In this document: positions 5,838 to 61,194 of the stretch, piece by piece
How the letters are laid out: each line of letters starts with the position of its first letter
Numbering within the stretch: position 1 is the first letter of the stretch
Assembly (NCBI GenBank): GCA_945862455.1
Contig: CAMAXU010000002.1
Span: forward strand, 257-64,256
Source: Rickettsia typhi
Lineage (GTDB): Bacteria > Pseudomonadota > Alphaproteobacteria > Rickettsiales > UBA1997
Length of the DNA: 64,000 nt
Direction: 5' to 3'
Made by a program: the position numbers and the translations under genes
Notes under the pieces: model-generated
What the model saw: the letters and a program-made list of their open reading frames with translations, nothing else
What the model was told of the DNA's origin: nothing
Database searches by the model: none

Positions 5838-5913
5838 TGGTGCCTGAAGCCGGAATCGAACCAGCGACACAAGGATTTTCAGTCCTTTGCTCTACCAACT
5901 GAGCTATTCAGGC
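5838..5913 (-). tRNA. tRNA-Phe (GAA)
   Basis: The reverse complement gcctgaatagctcagttggtagagcaaaggactgaaaatccttgtgtcgctggttcgattccggcttcaggcacca folds as a cloverleaf with anticodon loop CTGAAAA. CCA is encoded. Confidence 0.95.
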
Positions 5914-5918
5914 ATAAT

Positions 5919-6052
5919 GAGTCTGTCTCGTAAATCAAGCTTTTCGCAATTCTGATTTTTTTGAAACGCACGTACATCTGGGTACGCTTACCTTTCAAAA
6001 AAATCAGAATCACAAAAATTTCTTAGAAAATTTTGATTTACGCAACAGACTT
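5919..6052. repeat. nested palindromic element, family PE-4
   Basis: TIRs gagtctgtctcgtaaatcaa / ttgatttacgcaacagact; inner repeat gcaattctgatttttttgaaa / tttcaaaaaaatcagaatcac. The termini match the mini-element in the GNAT gene at 63016..63061. Confidence 0.8.
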
Positions 6053-6141
6053 ATAATTTATTTCTACTCAAAACGAAGGCGTGCAAGCTAAGAATGGTCT
6101 TTTATTTTGCAAGCTTGCTTAAAAATTAATTTCAAAAATTT

Positions 6142-8141: not shown

Positions 8142-8211
8142 ATTTTAAGAGGCGGGAAACTATTTTTGCGCAAGAAAAACTGCAAGGAATTTTTCCAAAT
8201 TCTTTTAATAT

Positions 8212-8318
8212 ATATACCAAATTAACTATCTCTTGATAGCCATAACTTTGTCTTTTTGGTAAAAATTTGCTCAGAAATACTTCGTTAGCGCTATTAAGAG
8301 ATAGTTAATTTGGTATAT
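8212..8318. repeat. nested palindromic element, family PE-1 (short form)
   Basis: TIRs atataccaaattaactatctcttgatagc / gctattaagagatagttaatttggtatat. Core tctttttggtaaaaatttgctcagaaatacttcg, with the central hairpin deleted relative to copies 964 and 47008. Confidence 0.8.
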
Positions 8319-8398: not shown

Positions 8399-8743
8399 TT
8401 ACTTTTTAGCAGGAGCTTCAACAGCAGCTGGAGCAGCAGCTTCTTCGGCTTTCACTTCAGCTTTTTTAGCTTTTTTATGAGCTTTTTTAGCGGCTTTAAC
8501 TTCAGGTTTAGCTTCAGCAACTTTAGCATCAGCTTTAACTTCTGCAGTTTTAACTTCAGCTTTAGCAGCTACTGGAGCAGCAACTTTAGCATCAGCTTTA
8601 GCAGCAGCTACTGGAGCAGCGGCTTTAACTTCAGCTTTAGCAGCTACTGGAGCAGCAGCTTTAACTTCAGCTTTAACAGCTTGAGCTTGAGCAGCAGTTG
8701 CGAAAAGAGAAACTGCAGCAATGATCAATGAAATTTTTTTCAT
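8399..8743 (-). CDS. secreted Ala/Lys-rich tandem-repeat protein
   Basis: Start set at MKKISLIIAAVSLFATAAQAQA (signal peptide), followed by AKAEVKAAAPVAA-type 13-aa repeats (about 39-nt DNA period) and a KKAHKKAKK tail. Confidence 0.7.
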   Translation of the reverse strand: MKKISLIIAAVSLFATAAQAQAVKAEVKAAAPVAAKAEVKAAAPVAAAKADAKVAAPVAAKAEVKTAEVKADAKVAEAKPEVKAAKKAHKKAKKAEVKAEEAAAPAAVEAPAKK

Positions 8744-8893
8744 TTTATTTATACACCAAATTGGTTTTGAGAGGCTAATCATTTCTGATTAGTTTCTTTC
8801 GATAATTATTAAGCTTAGCAGCTTTTAAGGGGCTGCAGGCAAAAATAACAGAAAGGCGGGCGGCAAAATATGGACCCAAATTTGTTTGTCAAA

Positions 8894-33881: not shown

Positions 33882-35024
33882 ATGACTCAATTTACAGATG
33901 ATTTAAGAAATTTTATCAAGGAACGCAATTTTTTGGAGGCTCGAGAAATATTTGGCGGCAAAATTCTAGAAGAAGAAGAAATAAAAGTGGTTAAAGTATT
34001 GTTTAAAGAAGCGCTTGAAAAGCGTGATATAAGAGAAATTGCTGCATTTAACGCTGCAGGAAAAGAGGTTTTTAATATTTTGATTCGAAGTATCATTGCT
34101 CCCAGTGATTTATTAGAAAGAGAATTGGACACTAAGATAAAAAAAATATCTGACATAAATTTTGCCAATGAATGGGAGGAGAAGGTTAAAACTTTCTGCG
34201 ATGATGATAATGAAGAAAGTCGTCAAAAAATTTGTGATTCTATACCTGAAGCAATGCAATGGGAATTTTTCAATGGTATTGAAGATTATCTTGCGCAACA
34301 AGATATTAAGAATGATGTAGAATGTGATCCCTTAGATTCTCCTGATGTTCATAAATTTAAATTCATCCTTTCTTACGGTGGCTTAAAAGCTGCCCAAGAA
34401 GAATTCAAAAAGTCTGATCAGTTGACTCTGACTCACTTGATTTTAAATGATCGGGGTTGTGAAGGATTCGCGAATGCGGTTCGATCTAATAAGCCTAAAA
34501 TAGTGGATCTTGTTCTCGCCAAAGTAGACCAAAAAGATGGATTAAGTATAATAAAACAATCTTTGTCTGGGATTAGTGAAGCTTTTCGAGGTCAAGATGA
34601 TGAGTTAAAGCATATTATAGAAACAATGTTTAAGTCTTTGGATGATGATTTGGTGATTGATTTCATAAATGATTCTCAGCTTGAAGAGGTTTGGCAAAAT
34701 ATGGCAGTTCTTAACCAATTGGGGTCATTGGAGTTCGTTTTAAATAAAGTGGAAGAATGCGATCGATTAGAATTAATAGATATGATCGATGGCAATATAC
34801 GCTACACTCTTCCAGAAGATGATGGCTTTTTAGAAGCTTGGGACGAATTAAAAAATTCTTTAGAAGAGTCGCAAAGCGATATAACCGAGGAGGATTTTGA
34901 GGAGCAGGAATTAGAATCTAATTTAGGCAAAAGATCCTTATCTTCAAAAGGATCAGTTCCAAATTCGTCAACTAATCCTAAAGGGAAAAAAAGAGTGAAG
35001 TCAGATGAACAGAAGGCGTATTAA
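33882..35024 (+). CDS. acidic hypothetical protein with basic C-terminal tail
   Basis: No family recognised. Helical, D/E-rich, ends ..NPKGKKRVKSDEQKAY. It overlaps the tsaE start by 20 nt. Confidence 0.6.
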   Translation: MTQFTDDLRNFIKERNFLEAREIFGGKILEEEEIKVVKVLFKEALEKRDIREIAAFNAAGKEVFNILIRSIIAPSDLLERELDTKIKKISDINFANEWEEKVKTFCDDDNEESRQKICDSIPEAMQWEFFNGIEDYLAQQDIKNDVECDPLDSPDVHKFKFILSYGGLKAAQEEFKKSDQLTLTHLILNDRGCEGFANAVRSNKPKIVDLVLAKVDQKDGLSIIKQSLSGISEAFRGQDDELKHIIETMFKSLDDDLVIDFINDSQLEEVWQNMAVLNQLGSLEFVLNKVEECDRLELIDMIDGNIRYTLPEDDGFLEAWDELKNSLEESQSDITEEDFEEQELESNLGKRSLSSKGSVPNSSTNPKGKKRVKSDEQKAY

Positions 35025-35433
35025 AAATCTTGAAGAGATGTCTAACTTTGCCAAAGAAATTGCAGCTTCGGTAAATATTGGCGATGTGGTTGGCTTAAAG
35101 GGAACTTTAGGTGCCGGGAAAAGTTTCTTCGCAAGGCACTTTATTAATTCTTTATGTGAAAAACCTGTCGAGGTTTTAAGCCCAACTTTTAATTTGGTTT
35201 ATTCATACGAAACCAAGGTCGGCGAGGTTTTTCATTTTGATCTTTATCGTTTAAAAAGTGCCGATGAGTTGGAAAATATCGGTTTTTTTGATGCTTTGCA
35301 TAATGGAATTAGTCTGATTGAATGGCCGGAAATTGCTGAAGGGTTTTTGAAAAAAAATTATCTCGAAATTGAAATAAAAACTATTGCCGCCTCTGACGAA
35401 GAAGTGCGGGAGGTTTTTTTGAAGAAAAAATAA
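35005..35433 (+). CDS. tsaE: tRNA t6A37 biosynthesis ATPase TsaE
   Basis: GLKGTLGAGKSFFARHF P-loop, PTFNLV..Y, HFDLYRL, EW. Confidence 0.88.
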   Translation: MNRRRIKNLEEMSNFAKEIAASVNIGDVVGLKGTLGAGKSFFARHFINSLCEKPVEVLSPTFNLVYSYETKVGEVFHFDLYRLKSADELENIGFFDALHNGISLIEWPEIAEGFLKKNYLEIEIKTIAASDEEVREVFLKKK

Positions 35434-35441
35434 TTGAGTCT

Positions 35442-35640
35442 GTATCTAACTCGTATGGACCCCGTCGTGAAGACGGGGTGACAGTGGAGGTAGATCTTCC
35501 CATACATGTCGTGAAGACGGGGTGACAGTGGAGGTAGATCTTCCCACGCATGTCGTAAAGACGGGGTTACTGTGGAGTGGAGGTAGATCTTCCTCCACTG
35601 TCACCCCGTCTTCACGACGGGGTCCATACGAGCTAGATAC
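35442..35640. repeat. complex nested palindrome, family PE-2, with internal 44-bp tandem repeats
   Basis: 49-bp arms (35442..35490 / 35592..35640, 1 mismatch) containing gaccccgtcgtgaagacggggtgaca. Between them are about 2.9 head-to-tail copies of gtcgtgaagacggggtgacagtggaggtagatcttccca..cat. Confidence 0.9.
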
Positions 35641-35664
35641 ACGATCATAAAATAAATAAATAAA

Positions 35665-36645
35665 ATGGAAAAATTTGAATTTGAAGTTGCTGAAAATGAA
35701 GGTGGAATTCGTCTTGATAAATTCCTGACTGAAAAATTTGCCGAAATAAAACCTGAAATTAACCGCACTAAAGTTCAACATTTGCTGGAAGAAAAACTAG
35801 TTTTGGATGAAGCAGGCAAAGCTTATGTCAGCGCTTCGCAAAAAACAAAAGTTGGACAAAAGTTTTTTGTAACTCCGCTTCCGCCACGTCCGTCGCATTT
35901 AACTGCTAAAGAAATTCCCTTCGAAATTATTTTTGAAGATGACGATTTGTTAGTAATTAATAAACCTGCCGGACTCACTGTTCATCCCGGTGCAGGCAAT
36001 CAAGATGAAACTTTGGTTAACGCACTTTTATTCACGCATCAAGATCGTCTTTCATCAATTTCTGGTGAATTTCGCCCCGGTATTGTGCATCGTTTGGATA
36101 AAGATACATCTGGCTTGATGTTGGTTGCAAAAAACGATTTTACGCACCAAATTTTAAGCCAAAAATTAAAAGACCGCGATATTAAAAGATCATACGCCGC
36201 CTTTGTTTATGGCTATATTTCGCCAGCGCGCGGCATGATTGAAAAAAATATTGTACGCTCAAAAATGAATCGCATGAAAATGTCGATTTCACGAACTTTG
36301 GGACGCGTTGCAATTACCAATTACGAAACCGTGGAAACTTTTCACGAAGGTTTCGCCAGCCTTATTGAATGCAGGTTACAAACTGGTCGTACGCATCAAA
36401 TTCGCATTCACATGGAATCAATTAAACATTCATTAATCGGCGATAAACTTTACAATTCTTGCAAAAAAATGGTGCCGTTAAATTTTTCACCAGAAGCTGT
36501 AAATTTTATAAAAAACTTTCCAAGACAGGCGCTGCATTCATATAAAATAAGCTTCGAGCATCCGCGCACTTTGCAAGAAATGTCTTTTGAAATTGATTTG
36601 CCACAAGATTTAAAAGATCTAAAAGAACATTTAAAAAATGGTTGA
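35665..36645 (+). CDS. rluD: RluA-family 23S rRNA pseudouridine synthase (RluD-like)
   Basis: S4 domain N-terminus, HRLDKDTSGLMLVAK, TGRTHQIRIH. Confidence 0.9.
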   Translation: MEKFEFEVAENEGGIRLDKFLTEKFAEIKPEINRTKVQHLLEEKLVLDEAGKAYVSASQKTKVGQKFFVTPLPPRPSHLTAKEIPFEIIFEDDDLLVINKPAGLTVHPGAGNQDETLVNALLFTHQDRLSSISGEFRPGIVHRLDKDTSGLMLVAKNDFTHQILSQKLKDRDIKRSYAAFVYGYISPARGMIEKNIVRSKMNRMKMSISRTLGRVAITNYETVETFHEGFASLIECRLQTGRTHQIRIHMESIKHSLIGDKLYNSCKKMVPLNFSPEAVNFIKNFPRQALHSYKISFEHPRTLQEMSFEIDLPQDLKDLKEHLKNG

Positions 36646-37534
36646 AAGAATCTTAATAATTTCTGGCGCAACTGCTTGCGGAAAATCTGGCTTGGCGATT
36701 GATTTGAGTGCCGAAAAAGATATTGCAATTATTAACGCTGATTCGCTGCAAATTTACGAAGGGCTGCCGATTTTATCTTCGCAACCGACAAAAGATGAGC
36801 AAAAAAAAGTTCCGCATTTTTTATATTCACATTTTAAACCACAAGAAACTTCATCCGTTGGATCATGGCTTAAGCTTTTAAAATCAAAGGTTGAAGAAGT
36901 TATAAAATTAAAAAAAATGCCCGTAATTGTTGGCGGTAGCGGTATGTACATTTCAAAATTGGTGGATGGAATTTCAGAAATTCCTGAAATTGATGAAGTG
37001 ATTAGAAATAATGCCCGCGAGCTTTATGAAGAAATTGGTCACGTTGAATTTCAGAAAAAATTAGTAGATTTAGGAGAAGATGAAATACTCGACAAGCAAC
37101 GCCTAACAAGGGCTTACGAAGTTTTGCAGCAAACCGGAAAACCGCTTTCTTGGTGGCAACATCAACCGCCAAAAAAGATTTTTGAAAATGTGGAATTTTT
37201 GCATGTAAATCTTGAATTAGAACGCAAAAAACTTTATGAAAATTGTAATTCGCGCTTTGAAAAAATGTTGGAGCTTGGCGCTTTCGAAGAAGTGAAAAAC
37301 CTTGTCAATCAAGGAATTTCAGATGATAAGCAAATTACTAAAACTTTAGGATTTTTAGAAATTCGTGAGTTTTTAAATGAAAGAATGAGTCACCAAAAAA
37401 TGGTAGAAATTGCGACACAAAAAACTCGAAATTATGCCAAAAGACAATTAACTTGGTTTCGTCATCAATTGCCGCAGAAGCATGTGTTTAGTGATTCCGC
37501 TGCAGCATTAAATTTTTTGAAAAATGAAATTTAG
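36638..37534 (+). CDS. miaA: tRNA dimethylallyltransferase
   Basis: ISGATACGKSGLAIDL, NADSLQIY..L.IL..QP, GGSGMY. Confidence 0.92.
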   Translation: MVERILIISGATACGKSGLAIDLSAEKDIAIINADSLQIYEGLPILSSQPTKDEQKKVPHFLYSHFKPQETSSVGSWLKLLKSKVEEVIKLKKMPVIVGGSGMYISKLVDGISEIPEIDEVIRNNARELYEEIGHVEFQKKLVDLGEDEILDKQRLTRAYEVLQQTGKPLSWWQHQPPKKIFENVEFLHVNLELERKKLYENCNSRFEKMLELGAFEEVKNLVNQGISDDKQITKTLGFLEIREFLNERMSHQKMVEIATQKTRNYAKRQLTWFRHQLPQKHVFSDSAAALNFLKNEI

Positions 37535-38252
37535 CGACTGCGGAATTATCATCAGTCAAAAAAAATACGGCGAAAATTCTTTGATCGTGAAAGTTTTTTC
37601 GCAAGAGCATGGTGTTTATCGAGGCTTTGTTCGCTTTGCCAAATCGGCTAAAGATAAGACAATTTTTCAAATCGGAAATTTAATTTCTTTTGAATATAGA
37701 AGTCGCTTGGAAGATAATTTAGGTCAGTTTTGCGCCGTTGATTTGATTCGTTCTTATTGCTCAAAAATCATTTTTGATAAAGTAAAACTCGATTGCGTAA
37801 ATTCATTATTTTCAATAATTGATGAGTCGTTTTTAGAGCGCGAAAACCACAAAAATCTTTTTGAAAAATTACGGCTTTTTATGCATAAAATTGCTGAAGA
37901 AAATGCGCCGAAAGATTTTTTGTCAGATTATGTGCGCTTAGAATTAGAAATTTTAAAAACTCTGGGTTATGGAATTGATTTATCTTCTTGCGCGGTAACT
38001 GATTCAACGGTGAATTTAGCTTTTGTATCACCAAAATCTGCCAGAGCAGTTTCGTTTGAAATTGGTCGACCTTATCAAAATAAATTGTTGAAATTGCCAA
38101 ATTTTTTAACGGCGAATGATGAAGAAATTCAGGATAAGGATTTGCATGATGGCTTGAAGTTGAGTGGATATTTTTTAGAAAAATTTATTTTTGAAAATAA
38201 GCCAGAGAAGCTGGCGAGTAGGAAGAAATTGGAGAAGATTTTTGCTATTTAA
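37524..38252 (+). CDS. recO: DNA repair protein RecO
   Basis: OB-fold N-terminus (GIIISQKKYGENSLIVKVFSQEHGVYRGFVR), size and miaA/era-type neighbourhood. Motifs are modest. Confidence 0.75.
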   Translation: MKFSDCGIIISQKKYGENSLIVKVFSQEHGVYRGFVRFAKSAKDKTIFQIGNLISFEYRSRLEDNLGQFCAVDLIRSYCSKIIFDKVKLDCVNSLFSIIDESFLERENHKNLFEKLRLFMHKIAEENAPKDFLSDYVRLELEILKTLGYGIDLSSCAVTDSTVNLAFVSPKSARAVSFEIGRPYQNKLLKLPNFLTANDEEIQDKDLHDGLKLSGYFLEKFIFENKPEKLASRKKLEKIFAI

Positions 38253-38266
38253 TTAGCTAACAGTTT

Positions 38267-39064
38267 CTAGAACATTAGCATTCCAACCAATTCAACTGGA
38301 TCAATTTTTTTTCCAAAAAGTAGGCATAAAAAAAATGCAAAACAAATCGCTGGAGCAAAAGGAAAAGTTTCATCTTTTTTGATTTTTTGCCACAATATTC
38401 CAAAGATAATTCCACAAATTCCGCTGAGCATCATAAAGGTCAGAAATCCTTGCGCTCCTAGCGCCAATCCTGCGATGAAAAAGAATTTAATATCATCAAT
38501 TCCAATCGCTTCGACTTTTATAGTAAAATAAAAAAATGCCAGAAGCGCCAATCCAAAAGCCATGTAGAGAAAGGCGGCGGGAAGATTGTGTAAAACCAGC
38601 GCATTTCCGCCTTTCATAATTACCAAAATCGTTACCAGAACAGTTAGAAAATATTGAGTGGAATTGGGAATGAAATATTCTTCCAAATCAACAACGCACA
38701 TTACAATCAGTGTGCCAGCAACTAAAAAATAAATTATCATTTTCAGGTCGAGCTGGCGATTTAAAACGAAAAAAATTGTTAAAAAAACTGCTAAAAAACT
38801 TAATTCAATTAATGGATAACGCGCTGAAATTTTAACTTTACAATTACTGCATTTACCGCGTTGAAAAAGCCAAGAAAATACTGGAATTAAATTTCTTATT
38901 TTTAGCGCCACGCCACAATTGGTGCATTTCGAACGCGTAAAAACCATCGGCTGTTTGCGCGCCATTCGATAGCTGATGAGACTGGCAAAACTGCCAAAAA
39001 TTAGGCCAAAAATTGATATTAAAAGAATTTGTTCTAATGGAGCGAATTGAGAAAAAAATTGCAT
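38267..39064 (-). CDS. type IV prepilin leader peptidase (A24 family)
   Basis: CxxC...CxxC N-terminal Zn module (CTNCG..., CSNCKVKISARYPLIE), multiple TM helices with D..EY and GIDDIKF aspartate sites. Confidence 0.85.
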   Translation of the reverse strand: MQFFSQFAPLEQILLISIFGLIFGSFASLISYRMARKQPMVFTRSKCTNCGVALKIRNLIPVFSWLFQRGKCSNCKVKISARYPLIELSFLAVFLTIFFVLNRQLDLKMIIYFLVAGTLIVMCVVDLEEYFIPNSTQYFLTVLVTILVIMKGGNALVLHNLPAAFLYMAFGLALLAFFYFTIKVEAIGIDDIKFFFIAGLALGAQGFLTFMMLSGICGIIFGILWQKIKKDETFPFAPAICFAFFLCLLFGKKIDPVELVGMLMF

Positions 39065-39147
39065 GAAGAGTCGTTAAAATTGCTAATTTGAAAGTCACAA
39101 ATAAAGTGCGGCAACCTTTCAATTAATCAATCTATTTAATCTAGAAA

Positions 39148-40065
39148 ATGAAATTTTTTCTCAGAGTTTTTTCTAGCTTTTTGATTGTGTTTCTTTTGTT
39201 TTCATGCAGCCAAAAACCTGCGAAAATAGTGAATCGCAGTAAAAATGTTTATAGCAAAAATAATGCAAAAAATCGCGATGTTAGAAAAGTGGAAAAACCA
39301 AAAAGCCGCGAGGTTGAAGTTGCTGAAAGCGACACTGTTTATACCGTTTCCAAAAAATATCAGGTTCCAATCCAAGACATCATAAAACAAAATAACCTGA
39401 AAGCGCCCTACAACTTCAAGGGTGGGGAAAAATTAACTCTTCCAGCCCCGACTTATCATGAAGTAAAATCTGGCGAAACTCTTTATGCAATTTCGCGTCA
39501 ATATAACATGAAGATTGATAATATTATTGAGCTCAATGATTTGAAAGAGCCTTACAGCGTCAAGACGGGACAGAAGTTGAAAATTGCCAATGTGGTTGAG
39601 AAAAAAACTGATGAAAAATTGAGGCAAGCACCAGAAATAAAGGCTGAGGTAAAATCTCCGGAAACTATTGTTGAAAAAATCGCTGACAAATTTAACCATT
39701 TTTCTTGGCCGGTTCGCGGTACAATTGTTTCAAAATTTGGACCAAAAAGCGGCGGACTTTATAATGACGGAATTAACATAAAAGCCAAAGAAGGCTCTGA
39801 TGTTAAGGCTTCAGAAGATGGCGTTGTTGCTTATGTTGGCAATGAACTTAAAGGCTATGGAAATTTAATTATTGTAAAACATGCCGGCGGCTGGATCACA
39901 GCTTATGCGCATTTAGGAAAATGGACAGTTAAGCGCGGGGAATCAGTTAAAAAAGGTCAAAAAATTGCTAATGTTGGATCTACGGGAAATGTTAATTCAC
40001 CGCAGCTTTATTTTGGTTTGCGTAAAGGCCGCGATGCGGTAAATCCTGAAAATTATTTGAAGTAA
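39148..40065 (+). CDS. LysM-M23 murein hydrolase activator lipoprotein (NlpD-like)
   Basis: Lipobox LLFSCS, two LysM repeats (YTVSKKYQV.., GETLYAISRQYNM..), and an M23 domain (GINIKAKEGSDV.A..DG.V.Y....KGYGN.IIVKH..G..T.YAHL). Confidence 0.88.
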   Translation: MKFFLRVFSSFLIVFLLFSCSQKPAKIVNRSKNVYSKNNAKNRDVRKVEKPKSREVEVAESDTVYTVSKKYQVPIQDIIKQNNLKAPYNFKGGEKLTLPAPTYHEVKSGETLYAISRQYNMKIDNIIELNDLKEPYSVKTGQKLKIANVVEKKTDEKLRQAPEIKAEVKSPETIVEKIADKFNHFSWPVRGTIVSKFGPKSGGLYNDGINIKAKEGSDVKASEDGVVAYVGNELKGYGNLIIVKHAGGWITAYAHLGKWTVKRGESVKKGQKIANVGSTGNVNSPQLYFGLRKGRDAVNPENYLK

Positions 40066-40994
40066 TGTCATTTTTAAAAATTTTCTCCAGATCAAAAATC
40101 AGCGATCAGCTAAAAAGTAGTTCCGGCAAGATTTCGACAGCGATCGCGCAGATTTTTACTCATAAAAAACTTGATGCTTTAACTCTCGAAGAGTTAGAGG
40201 AAGTTCTGATTTTAAGTGATATGGGAAGTGAGGTGGCGAGTTCGATAATTACAAATTTGAAAGCGCAAAAATTTGAAAAAAATATCGATGAAAATGAGAT
40301 TAAAAATTTTCTAAAACAGGAAATTGAGAACATTTTAAAACCTTGCCAAAAGGCGCTGGCGCTGGATGAATCTAAAAAGCCGCAAGTAATAATTTTTAAT
40401 GGCGTAAATGGCGCTGGCAAAACTACAACAATTGGAAAAGTTGCACAAAATTTAAAAAATCAAAATAAAAAAGTTTTAATCGCCGCCTGCGACACCTTTA
40501 GAGCAGCGGCTTCACATCAATTAGAAATCTGGGCTAAAAGAGTTGGTTGTGAAATTGTAATGCCAACAAAAGATGGTGAAGATCCGGCCGCAGTTGCTTA
40601 TCGCGCTTTTGATTTAGCCAAAAAAAATGATTTTGATGCGGTGTTGGTTGATACGGCTGGAAGGCTGCAAAATAAGCAAAATTTAATGGATGAACTCAAA
40701 AAAATTAATTCAGTTTTAAAGAAAATCGACGGCGCTGCACCGCATGAAAATTTGCTAATTTTAGATGCAACAACTGGTCAAAACGCCAAATCGCAATTAG
40801 AAATTTTTAACCAGATTGTTGGAATTACTGGCATTGTAATAACTAAATTGGATGGCTCTGCTAAAGGTGGCATCGTGGTTGCTCTTGCTCAAAAATTCTC
40901 CAAACCAATTTATGCAATTGGAGTTGGTGAAAAACTTGATGATTTGCAAGAATTTGATGCTGCAAGTTTTGCCAAGAATTTGGTTGGGCTTTAA
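40065..40994 (+). CDS. ftsY: signal recognition particle receptor FtsY
   Basis: NG domain: GVNGAGKTTTIGK, DTFRAAA, DTAGR, TKLDG.AKGG. Confidence 0.95.
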   Translation: MSFLKIFSRSKISDQLKSSSGKISTAIAQIFTHKKLDALTLEELEEVLILSDMGSEVASSIITNLKAQKFEKNIDENEIKNFLKQEIENILKPCQKALALDESKKPQVIIFNGVNGAGKTTTIGKVAQNLKNQNKKVLIAACDTFRAAASHQLEIWAKRVGCEIVMPTKDGEDPAAVAYRAFDLAKKNDFDAVLVDTAGRLQNKQNLMDELKKINSVLKKIDGAAPHENLLILDATTGQNAKSQLEIFNQIVGITGIVITKLDGSAKGGIVVALAQKFSKPIYAIGVGEKLDDLQEFDAASFAKNLVGL

Positions 40995-41221
40995 TATTAT
41001 TAGTTTGTTGCGGTTCCATCAGAAAGGTTACAAGCAGTTGATTCCCCTGATTCAGATAGGGCATAATTAAAAAAATGTGGGGCTTTTTTCAATAATTTTC
41101 AAACTAACTCATAGTCATGTTGAGCTTAGTTTCTCAGTTTTTTAATTATACCCAGATTTGCGACAGCGCCATAATGCCTCGTTGGCTTAGGGTTGAAGTT
41201 ATAAATTTCTGGAAGGCGGTG

Positions 41222-41327
41222 AAGACCGAGTGGACCCCGTCTTGAAGACGGGGTGACAATGATTATAGTTTATCCAACTAACTTTACACTTGTCACCCCG
41301 TCTTCAAGACGGGGTCCACTCGGTCTT
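41222..41327. repeat. palindromic element, family PE-2 (simple copy)
   Basis: Perfect 37-bp arms aagaccgagtggaccccgtcttgaagacggggtgaca / tgtcaccccgtcttcaagacggggtccactcggtctt around a 32-bp spacer. Confidence 0.9.
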
Positions 41328-47007: not shown

Positions 47008-47168
47008 ATACCAAGTTGCGATCAAAAAGTGAGTAAATAACTGCAGAATTTTGGTAAAAATTTGCTCGAATAATGACGCTGTATCCCTGATACAGCTTAC
47101 ATTATCTGTCGCAATTTTTCCTCAAAATTTCTTTATTATTTACTCACTTTTTGATCTCAACTTGGTAT
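47008..47168. repeat. nested palindromic element, family PE-1 (full copy)
   Basis: TIRs ataccaagttgcgatcaaaaagtgagtaaataa / ttatttactcactttttgatctcaacttggtat. Core ttttggtaaaaatttgctcgaataatga + hairpin (gctgtatc/gatacagc) + cattatctgtcgcaatttttcctcaaaa. Confidence 0.85.
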
Positions 47169-49937: not shown

Positions 49938-49972
49938 TATTCATGCTTGATTTGTGACAGAGCCAAAATCTA

Positions 49973-50022
49973 TACCAAAAAGACAAAGTTATAGCTATCA
50001 AGAGATAGTTAATTTGGTATAT
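49973..50022. repeat. PE-1 half element (left half of the 8212 copy, inverted)
   Basis: taccaaaaagacaaagttatagctatcaagagatagttaatttggtatat is the near-exact reverse complement of 8212..8262. It overlaps the SDR gene 3' end. Confidence 0.85.
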
Positions 50023-59421: not shown

Positions 59422-61194
59422 ATGGCTTTTCAGCAAAATCAAAAACAGCGCTTAAACCTCAAAAATCTTTTCGCATTATTGCCATTTTTCAAGCCCTACA
59501 AACGCGAAGTTATGTTGGCTTCGACTGCTTTGTTTGTAACGGCGCTGATGATTTTATTTTTTGGTAAAGTTGTAAAATATATGATTGATTTTGGTTTTTC
59601 GCAGCAGAATCATCTTTTTCTAAATCTAGTTTTGCTCACTTTTATTTTGGCAGTTTTCATCATGGCGATTGCAGGTTATTATCGCTCTTCCTTGATTAAT
59701 TCGGTGGCAGAAAAAGTGATCGCCGATTTACGTAAAAAAGTTTATAATCACATCATTCACGTTTCGGCCGAATTTTTTGAATTAACCAAAGCTGGCGATG
59801 TGATATCGCGCCTTACGGTTGATACCGCTGTGCTTTATAACGTAATCAGCAACACCATTTCATTTTTGCTGCGTAATTCGTTGTTTTTTTTAGGCGGTCT
59901 TTCTTTGTTATTTTTCACCAGTGGCAAACTCAGTTTGTTGACAATGTTGATTATTCCAATCGCCATTTCGCCGATTATTTTTATGGGAAAATCAATCAAA
60001 TCACTTTCTAATAATTCGCAAATGGCATTGTCGTCAGTCGGCGCGCATGTTGAAGAAACGGTGAGTGGCATCAAAACTATTCAATCATATTTATGCGAAG
60101 AAAAAGAAGCGCGCAATTTTTTTGATTTTGTTGATTCGGCGTTAAAAATTTCGCTCGAAAAAATTCGCATAAAATCATTGATGATTGCTTTTGTGATAAC
60201 TTTTTCTTTTGGCGGCATCGCCTTGATTTTGTGGGTTGGCGGGCATGATGTGTTAAGTGGCAAAATCACTTCTGGCGATCTTTCTTCTTTCATTTTTTAT
60301 TCGATTATCACTTCAACATCTTTGGTTTCGTTAAGTCAAATTGCTGGACAATTACAAAGTGCTTCCGCTTCTGCTTCGCGGATTTTTGAGCTTTTGGAAA
60401 TTCAATCTCCCGTCAAAGAAATAGCTCATCCACATCCATTTCCACCAGCAAAAGAAATTACTATAAAATTCCAAGATGTGAATTTTTCTTACCCAAGTCG
60501 CAAAGATTTTGAAGTGTTAAAAAACTTTAATCTGGAAATTAAACCGCATGAAAAAATCGGGATTGTCGGTTCCAGCGGATCTGGAAAAAGCACAATTTTG
60601 CAACTTTTACTACGTTTTTATGATGTTGATTCGGGCATGATTTCACTGAACGGAGTCGACATGCGGGCGCTTTCATTTTCTGATCTGCGCCAAAATTTTT
60701 CTTATATTTCTCAAGATTGTTTTATTTTTTCAGGCACGATTTTTGAAAATATCGCTTACGTTGACAAATCAATCACAGAAGAGCAGGTTGAAAAAATTAT
60801 TGCACAAAATCCGGCGCTCGATTTCATCAATCATTTGCCACAAAAAATGCATAACCAAGTTGGCGAAAAAGGCATTAAACTTTCCGGCGGCGAGCGTCAA
60901 AGAATTGCAATTGCGCGCGCCATTATCAAGGATTCACCGATTTTATTATTAGATGAAGCAACTTCCGCGCTCGATAATCACAATGAAAAAAATATCACCA
61001 ATGCAATTACTAATTTAGCTAAAGAAAAAACCGTAATTACAATTGCGCACAAACTTTCTTCGGTTGCAGCTTCTGATCGAATTATTTTTGTCAAAAATGG
61101 CGAAATAGCCGAAATCGGCTCGCATCAAGAGCTGGTGGCGCAAGATGGCTTTTATAAAAAGATGTATGAAGTTGAAATGTTGGGAGTGATTTAA
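59422..61194 (+). CDS. ABC transporter permease/ATP-binding protein (ABCB/MsbA-like exporter)
   Basis: Six TM helices followed by an NBD: GSSGSGKST, LSGGERQRIAIARA, LLLDEATSALD. Confidence 0.9.
   Translation: MAFQQNQKQRLNLKNLFALLPFFKPYKREVMLASTALFVTALMILFFGKVVKYMIDFGFSQQNHLFLNLVLLTFILAVFIMAIAGYYRSSLINSVAEKVIADLRKKVYNHIIHVSAEFFELTKAGDVISRLTVDTAVLYNVISNTISFLLRNSLFFLGGLSLLFFTSGKLSLLTMLIIPIAISPIIFMGKSIKSLSNNSQMALSSVGAHVEETVSGIKTIQSYLCEEKEARNFFDFVDSALKISLEKIRIKSLMIAFVITFSFGGIALILWVGGHDVLSGKITSGDLSSFIFYSIITSTSLVSLSQIAGQLQSASASASRIFELLEIQSPVKEIAHPHPFPPAKEITIKFQDVNFSYPSRKDFEVLKNFNLEIKPHEKIGIVGSSGSGKSTILQLLLRFYDVDSGMISLNGVDMRALSFSDLRQNFSYISQDCFIFSGTIFENIAYVDKSITEEQVEKIIAQNPALDFINHLPQKMHNQVGEKGIKLSGGERQRIAIARAIIKDSPILLLDEATSALDNHNEKNITNAITNLAKEKTVITIAHKLSSVAASDRIIFVKNGEIAEIGSHQELVAQDGFYKKMYEVEMLGVI

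Follow-up and report, generated by a model that had tools for sequence, protein, structure and literature searches.

A probable CGTC/TGTC-tagged REP dimer with an expanded spacer between tsaE and an rluD-like gene in an alphaproteobacterial contig

The 64,000-nt stretch of DNA analyzed here, catalogued as Rickettsia typhi (contig CAMAXU010000002.1 of assembly GCA_945862455.1) and referred to below as the window, contains a 199-bp, strongly self-complementary structure at positions 35442-35640, between tsaE and a gene for an RluD-like pseudouridine synthase. This structure is most probably an inverted dimer of repetitive extragenic palindromic (REP) units of the CGTC/TGTC-tagged type, and a member of a dispersed non-coding family of freshwater Alphaproteobacteria. 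The spacer of the dimer is expanded by a 44-nt tandem array, the unit number of which differs between strains that are 97-98% identical.

The element and its dispersed family

The two arms of the structure, 35442-35490 and 35592-35640, are reverse complements with a single mismatch in 49 positions, as the first-pass annotation of the window had reported, and an inverted-repeat search extends their pairing to 60 nt (35441-35500 against 35582-35641, 95%). Both arms carry the hairpin ACCCCGTC-GTGAA-GACGGGGT. The nested hairpins described in that annotation are real; what was missed is their likely identity, namely that they are themselves the REP units of a tail-to-tail REP dimer. The tandem array with a diverged last unit, described there as well, was recovered by Tandem Repeats Finder with a period of 44 nt, 2.6 copies, and 92% matches at 35464-35577. 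Units 1 and 2 of the array are equal at 42 of 44 positions, and unit 3 has diverged (25 of 44 in register). Each unit is composed of the REP loop, 3′ stem, and tag, followed by spacer module C (GTGGAGGTAGATCTTCCCAYRCA) and then TGTC.

The G+C content of the element is 53.7%, versus 36.2% for the window, and the contrast with AT-rich surroundings noted in the first pass therefore stands. Folding of both RNA strands, which had been proposed at the same time, gave predicted energies of -138.4 kcal/mol for the plus strand and -130.4 kcal/mol for the minus strand, with z-scores of -14.3 and -15.4, respectively, versus shuffled controls; the predicted DNA fold of the element has an energy of -76.6 kcal/mol (z -13.2 versus shuffled controls). 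Each strand is predicted to form a single long hairpin. The 27-mer core of the unit, GGACCCCGTC(G/T)TGAAGACGGGGTGACA, has four occurrences in the window and none in 100 shuffles, and GACGGGGT occurs 10 times, with 0.27 expected. The parts of the element, together with those of a simpler sibling elsewhere in the window, are as follows.

35441..35641, no strand: whole element, a probable inverted dimer of two REP units, tail-to-tail with tags inward and an expanded spacer (inverted repeat and folding)
35444..35456, plus strand: left outer arm of about 13 nt (arm complementarity across 40 dimers); pairing in the window copy reaches 35441
35457..35483, plus strand: left REP unit, GGACCCCGTCGTGAAGACGGGGTGACA (exact core match)
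Parts of the left REP unit, plus strand: tail 35457-35458, stem 35459-35466, loop 35467-35471, stem 35472-35479, tag GACA 35480-35483
35464..35577, plus strand: tandem array of 44-nt units (Tandem Repeats Finder), at 35464-35507, 35508-35551, and, diverged, from 35552
35576..35599, no strand: small central palindrome, AGTGGAGGTAGA/TCTTCCTCCACT around AGATCT, the tip of the long hairpin (inverted-repeat search)
35599..35625, minus strand: right REP unit (exact minus-strand core match)
Parts of the right REP unit, minus strand: tag TGTC 35599-35602, stem 35603-35610, loop 35611-35615, stem 35616-35623, tail CC 35624-35625
35626..35641, minus strand: right outer arm (inverted repeat and arm complementarity)
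41222..41327, no strand: sibling dimer without an array, with REP units at 41232-41258 (plus) and 41291-41317 (minus) and a 32-nt spacer (core match)

The sibling, which the first-pass annotation had already placed beside trpE, has perfect 37-nt arms, carries the rare TTGAA variant in both loops, and sits 12 nt past the trpE stop codon (TIGR00564 above cut-off).

When 185,579 species genomes were scanned for exact pattern matches, the 27-mer turned up in 73 stretches belonging to nine metagenome-assembled genomes (MAGs), which are titled uncultured Alphaproteobacteria, Rickettsiales, 'Azospirillum' or 'Rhizobium' and come mostly from lakes. A scan of metagenome contigs, for which the pattern was the 21-nt hairpin only, with tag and tail outside it, added 85 further stretches. 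The collected stretches were compared with the window and are denoted below by L-numbers. The first-pass annotation had allowed that the motif might occur nowhere else; it is in fact dispersed, with 304 cores in 169 clusters in the complete catalogue. The core was absent from 2.9 million viral contigs, and a plasmid search returned no similar sequence on any plasmid. The contigs in which the 27-mer was found range from 32% to 58% G+C. Many of the contigs terminate at a core, as is characteristic of repeats that interrupt short-read assembly. Among the collected stretches, L003 (from MAG CAIZZE01) is 93% identical to window positions 35559-41002, which makes this MAG a close relative of the source of the window.

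Read on the minus strand, the unit is TGTC-ACCCCGTC-TTCAC-GACGGGGT-CC(A), that is, a tag, an 8-bp stem, a 5-nt loop, the returning stem, and a tail. The stem, ACCCCGTC/GACGGGGT, is G+C-rich and has A-T as its first pair. The core is near-invariant across the collected copies. In the 112 metagenome copies, the tag TGTC (GACA on the plus strand) is conserved to at least 88% at each of its four positions, and the loop is GTGAA/TTCAC in 103. Ahead of the plus-strand hairpin stand T (87%), G or A (65% and 23%), and G (90%), which corresponds to CCA or CTA on the tag strand. In the 40 dimers compared, arm complementarity reaches about 13 nt past the core and is stronger within a copy than between copies. 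These outer 13 nt are a lineage-specific part of the repeat and not unique sequence: they read tCAAGyCCGAGT in the CAIZZE/CANKYC group and TACCGCGCTGACT in the CAIRMX/CAIUFU/CANGQE/CANEVP group. Homogenization of the two arms inside the core was considered and found no support, in that 143 variants are confined to one arm versus one that is shared; only the tail position and the outer arms co-vary.

Inverted dimers make up most of the clusters; of the 114 simple dimers, 88 have their tags facing inward, as both copies in the window do, and 26 have them facing outward. Tags-inward dimers have mosaic spacers composed of a few short modules, and module C of the window copy (tggaggtagatcttccaacgca) is also found in L021, L029, L032, and L062. 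Where contigs have 55-58% G+C, the partner of the core is a variant REP, TGTC-ATGCCGTC-GAAC-GACGGCAT-CC, with compensatory changes in its stem. Whole dimers, spacer included, recur within one MAG at 85-95% identity and between unrelated flanks—for example, in the paralogous pairs L039/L045 (95%), L026/L034 (90%), and L010/L062 (90%)—and the dimer is therefore taken to be the unit that spreads. Target-site duplications were not seen: in 40 dimers, direct repeats at offsets of 8-21 nt were not above expectation, and none is visible at either window copy.

The orientation of neighboring genes matches the background, with 32 tandem, 10 convergent, and 6 divergent cases versus 297, 72, and 69 for all intergenic regions, and the element typically occupies most of its intergenic space. 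Of 131 clusters, nine (about 7%) lie inside long open reading frames (ORFs) and 93% outside. Copies inserted in frame were found in the genes for MnmE (L045), NadE (L023), a PabB-like protein (L033), and a PolyA_pol-family protein (L036), and in these four cases Pfam domains are found on both sides of the insert or the C-terminus is intact. The frame of MnmE continues to the canonical C-terminal FCIGK, and the NadE insert lies in the inter-domain linker. The core itself is open in four of six reading frames (GPRREDGVT, CHPVFTTGS, VTPSSRRGP, and SPRLHDGV).

Two superfamilies of REPs, one tagged with GTAG and the other with CGTC, have been distinguished (Di Nocera et al., 2013, BMC Genomics 14:522, PMC3733652). 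The CGTC REPs are described as having a tag that is frequently TGTC (CCTC is also allowed), an 8-9 bp stem opening with A-T, a 4-5 nt loop, and a CCA tail; their hosts are mostly Alphaproteobacteria, and they occur mostly as dimers, head-to-head as a rule, with spacers of 20-100 bp or more, some of which contain small stem-loops (PMC3733652). The present family shares with them the unpaired TGTC tag, the 8-bp stem with A-T first, the 5-nt loop, the CCA tail, and alphaproteobacterial hosts; its architecture (8-bp stem, 5-nt loop) is that of CGTC-2 in particular. Like them, it is multi-copy, dispersed, and mainly intergenic, forms mostly inverted dimers, whose spacers have the published range of lengths and in some cases hold small stem-loops, lies mainly near ORF ends between co-directional or convergent genes, has occasional in-frame intragenic copies, and flanks no examined gene for a REP-associated tyrosine transposase (RAYT). 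It differs in the frequency of arrays of partial REP units (27% of clusters) and in its hosts, which are uncultured freshwater lineages outside the published survey.

Two members of the class are Rickettsia palindromic elements (RPEs): RPE-6 of R. conorii is CGTC-1 and RPE-4 is CGTC-4, both with intragenic copies (PMC3733652). RPEs are known to insert in frame (prokaryotic MITE review, PMC10969869). The family resembles RPE-4 and RPE-6 in being palindromic, in occurring in Alphaproteobacteria labelled Rickettsiales, and in lying both between genes and in frame within housekeeping genes, with the frame kept. The present hosts, however, are not Rickettsia, only about 7% of the clusters are intragenic, and the comparison is one of behavior.

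Several points weigh against the assignment. Tags-inward (tail-to-tail) dimers prevail here by 88 to 26, whereas the published rule is head-to-head, and the second stem pair is C-G instead of A-T. The match to the CGTC class was made by its published description, not by the CGTC-1 to CGTC-4 consensuses. The copies were gathered by exact core match, so that the apparent invariance of the core is partly a matter of ascertainment; partner units and flanks outside the search pattern are conserved as well. Finally, no T-run follows the hairpin on the coding strand, where the plus-strand sequence reads ACGATCATAAAATAAA.

RAYT genes and a second hairpin

No association with RAYT genes has been reported for CGTC REPs, and no transposase has been identified for them (PMC3733652). 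In about 1.2 Mb of core-bearing sequence, RAYT genes were searched for with a regular expression for the HUH and Y motifs, with phmmer and E. coli RayT, and with a family hidden Markov model (HMM). They were detected only in L085 and L112, core-bearing contigs from sister lineages, with a remnant in L027; the RayT probe and the family HMM found none in the 64-kb window. The L085 gene (1884-2252 and 2249-2380) is frameshifted: its HUH part (122 aa) and Tyr-motif part (44 aa), together spanning 1884-2380, are split by a stop codon with a +1 shift near GAGAGTGAGTGAGG. Once repaired, it matches the full length of NF047646, 'REP-associated tyrosine transposase', with 79.1 bits (E 2.9e-22), and the IS200 model with 17 bits. 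The L112 gene is truncated past the HUH motif, and L027 (752-817) keeps 22 residues. The disruption of RAYT genes in core-bearing lineages may reflect gene decay or sequencing error. Intact 164-aa homologues, up to 95% identical, are present in public data; L161 and L162 carry intact genes on contigs of 156 and 182 kb. Directly upstream of the L085 RAYT gene lies a 509-aa ORF (165-1694) with a reverse-transcriptase domain (PF00078, E 6e-12; YRDDYRIF).

The RAYT genes are flanked by a different hairpin, designated REP-B, with the form GGACGGG(G/A)T-TGCAA-A(C/T)CCCGTCC (for example, GGACGGGGT-TGCAA-ACCCCGTCC). Up to five copies, with GTGA/TTGA-like 5′ tags, surround a RAYT gene. The first 158 loci contain seven copies and the window none. 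REP-B sites were located as follows.

L085, 1765-2423
L112, 1851-1873 and 2478-2500
L161, 9888-10702
L162, 8816-10693

REP-B shares its 8-bp stem duplex (ACCCCGTC/GACGGGGT) with the core, in swapped arm order, and the tag plus 5′ arm of REP-B, GTGAGGACGGGGT, nearly equals the loop plus 3′ arm of the core, GTGAAGACGGGGT. The stems of REP-B also occur as compensatory variants (GACGGGAT/ATCCCGTC and GACTGGGT/ACCCAGTC). None of the RAYT genes examined, in L085, L112, and L161-L164 (the last four intact), is flanked by the core; all are flanked by REP-B, which reproduces the published negative for CGTC REPs.

The family has much in common with REPINs and their RAYTs (Bertels and Rainey, 2011; Nunvar et al., 2010) and with the bacterial interspersed mosaic elements (BIMEs) of E. 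coli (Ton-Hoang et al., 2012): a long hairpin built from a pair of inverted REPs spreads as a whole, a target-site duplication is lacking, REP orientation alternates with a mosaic of linker motifs in between, tandem reiteration is seen as in BIME-2, and the lineage has a RAYT gene. Unlike in REPIN/RAYT systems, the tag is TGTC instead of GTAG, and the RAYT genes are flanked by REP-B.

On this basis, the element could be a REPIN in the strict sense, that is, a REP doublet copied by its own cognate RAYT, which would recognize the core hairpin and a flanking tetranucleotide. The lineage does encode a RAYT, L085 and L112 carry both a RAYT gene and core elements, the RAYT-flanking hairpin has the stem duplex of the core, with GTGAGGACGGGGT close to GTGAAGACGGGGT, and the dimers spread as units without duplicating their targets. 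Nonetheless, this explanation is unlikely, as every RAYT gene examined is flanked by REP-B and none by the core, the family HMM found no further RAYT in the core-bearing sequence, both copies on core-bearing contigs are disrupted, REP-B stems (GACGGGAT, GACTGGGT) vary whereas the core does not, and the same non-association has been published for all CGTC REPs.

For a CGTC/TGTC-tagged family, a RAYT acting in trans would be the leading candidate for the agent of spread. More specifically, and as a rather doubtful proposal suggested by sequence resemblance, the RAYT of the lineage might act in trans on such REPs, the core having arisen where two RAYT-type REPs in direct repeat met and having kept the features that the enzyme recognizes. 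The relation between REP-B and the core is a lead and not a result, because the stems of REP-B vary while the core is constant, and because two 20-kb loci with an intact RAYT gene contain no core.

Gene context and possible effects on expression

The element lies between the two following genes, as stated in the first-pass annotation.

35005..35433, plus strand: tsaE, the upstream gene, with its stop codon 8 nt before the element (TIGR00150, E 2.4e-30)
35665..36645, plus strand: gene for an RluA-family (RluD-like) pseudouridine synthase, with its ATG 24 nt past the element (TIGR00005 above cut-off)

The product of the downstream gene scores 250 bits with the RluD equivalog model, under the 351 cut-off of that model. 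It is followed by miaA and recO, overlapping or abutting, and the co-directional row reads xthA-like gene, 380-aa ORF of unknown function, tsaE, element, rluD-like gene, miaA, recO. The element is the sole sizeable gap within this row of overlapping or abutting genes and is therefore probably transcribed. Lacking a T-run after the hairpin, the element does not qualify as a canonical intrinsic terminator, and terminator prediction called no terminator-like site there. No Rfam family reaches its gathering score at the element, and only two tRNAs do so in the whole window; a permissive search returned, below threshold, only generic long-hairpin models of microRNA precursors.

In a tandem gene pair of E. 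coli, REP325 partially terminates transcription and also stabilizes the upstream mRNA (bioRxiv 10.64898/2026.03.23.713779). If transcribed, the element would fold as a duplex of about 55 bp or more, which could shield the tsaE message from 3′ exonucleases, cut read-through into rluD, or serve as a substrate of RNase III, and the number of array units could modulate the decoupling of tsaE from rluD. Such an effect on the tsaE-rluD operon is suggested by analogy.

A REP dimer persists at this locus beyond the closest relatives of the window: one adjoins the 3′ end of tsaE in L005 (TsaE 77% identical in amino acids) and another the 5′ end of rluD in L065 (RluD 78% identical), with outer arms of the type of their own lineage in both. 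The other flank of the L005 element corresponds to window position about 12767, so that synteny is broken at the element. The sibling is missing in L084, in which the ftsY-trpE spacer has 56 nt of different sequence versus 345 nt in the window, and the region after ftsY in L003 differs yet again. The suggestion of a recombination hot spot made in the first pass thus receives some support from the L005 break and from the replacement of the spacer in L084.

The 227 nt between ftsY and the sibling (40995-41221) are absent from L084. A segment of about 70 nt in this region (…aaaaaaatgtggggcttttttc…), especially 41060-41130, recurs in L115 (93%), L135, L098, L081, and L118, so that at least two repeat families are pieced together between ftsY and the sibling. 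At window positions 61176-61192, convergent genes nearly abut, and a REP element is present at this place in two other species, in L050 (1393-1489; a single unit plus module B) and in L019 (2650-2744; a tags-outward dimer), which indicates either repeated use of a similar site or loss in the window lineage. The empty-site pairs (L073 versus L043/L024, L027 versus L042, window 61176-61192 versus L050/L019, and L084 versus the sibling) are too diverged, or have the whole spacer replaced, and give no clean boundary.

It is improbable that the element is a dedicated cis-regulatory RNA of the tsaE-rluD operon—an attenuator, terminator, or processing site—kept for that role. In favor of such a role, a REP dimer is found next to tsaE (3′ end) or rluD (5′ end) in the window, L084, L148, L078, L003, L005, and L065, the predicted fold is extremely stable, and E. 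coli REPs can act in this way. However, the same core occurs at more than 150 unrelated loci, next to genes of all orientations in background proportions, and also inside ORFs; the structure at the locus is not conserved, with 0, 2 or 3 units and a decayed right REP in L078; and there is neither an Rfam family nor a T-run.

Still less probable is a MITE (miniature inverted-repeat transposable element), that is, a deletion derivative of an insertion sequence with a DDE transposase, mobilized via its 40-nt terminal inverted repeats. The long terminal inverted repeats (about 40 nt, composed of 13 nt and the 27-nt core) would fit this explanation, as would the small size, the multiple copies, and the presence or absence of the element at orthologous sites. 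Nevertheless, the 40 dimers show no target-site duplication at any offset, dimers with tags inward and outward both occur such that the 'ends' vary, single units are frequent, as are tandem partial units, and no transposase gene with the same ends was seen in about 1.2 Mb of core-containing loci.

The tandem array and the wider window

The interval between the end of tsaE and the start of rluD compares as follows.

Window: 269 nt, three units
L148 (97.6% identical to the window): 269 nt, three units, with single-nucleotide polymorphisms (SNPs) of its own
L084 (97-98% identical, 113-kb contig): 225 nt, two units, exactly one 44-nt unit fewer
L078 (93% identical): 170 nt, no array, right REP decayed

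In addition, L075, an ENA contig encoding an identical TsaE, stops within unit 2, and L003 starts within the array. The array is present in the independent assemblies L148, L084, and L075 and is therefore not an assembly artefact. The idea that the tandem triplication was produced by assembly, which the first-pass annotation had kept in view, can be dismissed with little hesitation: short-read contigs do break at the locus (L003 starts and L075 ends inside the array), but the window and L148 are independent assemblies with three units each and their own SNPs, L084 has exactly two units across an intact 113-kb contig, and similar arrays are internal to many other contigs. The comparison of unit number—three in the window and L148, two in L084, and none in L078—also bears out the earlier description of the element as slippage-prone, given that strains 97-98% identical differ by exactly one unit and that arrays are found in 45 clusters.

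Internal arrays, present in those 45 of the 169 clusters (27%), have periods of 12-100 nt and 2-9 copies. They often take in part of the core, with variable phase relative to it, the units starting at core positions 1, 8, about 13, or 18. A site-specific origin, such as a nick made by a nuclease in the loop, was rejected, because the phase of the array differs between copies; the variable phase points to generic slippage instead. A CRISPR-like array was likewise rejected, in that the units between cores are identical to each other and are not unique spacers. At orthologous filled sites with flanks that are 96-97% identical, element lengths differ (133 versus 172, 115 versus 183, 128 versus 160, and 117 versus 57 nt).

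In the window copy, the unit junction reads ...CCCAYRCA-TGTC-GTGAAGACGGGGTGACA..., in which CA, TGTC, and GTGAA can be distinguished; it joins TGTC, the four bases with which the right-hand REP begins, to position 11 of the left-hand one. On the simplest account, the array was born when two short direct repeats (GTC/TGTC), one at REP positions 8-10 and one at the start of the opposite REP, were misaligned, which would duplicate the segment consisting of loop, 3′ stem, tag, and spacer. Later growth and shrinkage would proceed by slipped-strand mispairing or unequal exchange, probably aided by the very stable hairpin. We infer this origin from the junction sequence.

In the pneumococcal BOX element (boxA-boxB(n)-boxC), the terminal modules pair with one another, and the internal module, about 45 nt long, is present in variable tandem number. 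The analogy with the window element is one of form only: sequence and host are unrelated, and the BOX termini are not REP hairpins. In two stretches of MAG CAIZZE01, L013 (3929-4101) and L058 (4126-4320), the contigs end within arrays of at least three head-to-tail 60-nt units, each consisting of one REP (loop TTGAA/TTCAA) and spacer module A. The two arrays are oppositely oriented and may represent either end of a single long array that was left unassembled.

The window contains several other repeats. A short dispersed repeat, ataccaaattaactatctcttgatagc...ctttttggta, lies between genes at 8203-8277 and, inverted, at 49966-50022, and is 94-98% identical to segments of L032, L081, and L116. 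A palindromic repeat family, ggtaaaaatttgctcgaataatga...tcattat, at 999-1089 and 47049-47139, is common to L024, L032, L016, L145, and L146 (84-88%). Another palindromic repeat of about 110 nt (5940-6056) adjoins the tRNA gene at 5841-5913 and is 92-93% identical to segments of L116, L087, L077, and L131. On the minus strand, a 127-aa ORF at 8399-8782 has a signal-peptide-like N-terminus and tandem repeats rich in Ala, Lys, Val, and Glu (AEVKAAAPVAAK...), which account for the Tandem Repeats Finder hits at 8437-8695. The first 2000 nt of the window have 45% G+C, versus 36%, with short tandem repeats of the GGAGGCGGA type at 280-329, 612-698, and 879-908.

For the annotation of the window, the element is best entered as repeat DNA and not as a gene or a dedicated regulator. 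If correctly assigned, it adds to the CGTC-tagged class a very uniform REP family from uncultured freshwater Alphaproteobacteria. The REP dimers of this family are hot spots for short tandem arrays of partial units that vary between strains 97-98% identical; such arrays break short-read assemblies and could serve as strain markers. The in-frame copies in housekeeping genes extend RPE-like behavior to genomes that still encode tryptophan synthesis (trpE). The presence of the stem of the dispersed REP in a RAYT-flanking hairpin offers a testable entry to what mobilizes CGTC REPs, and servicing in trans by a RAYT, if true, would link the two REP superfamilies by descent and mechanism.

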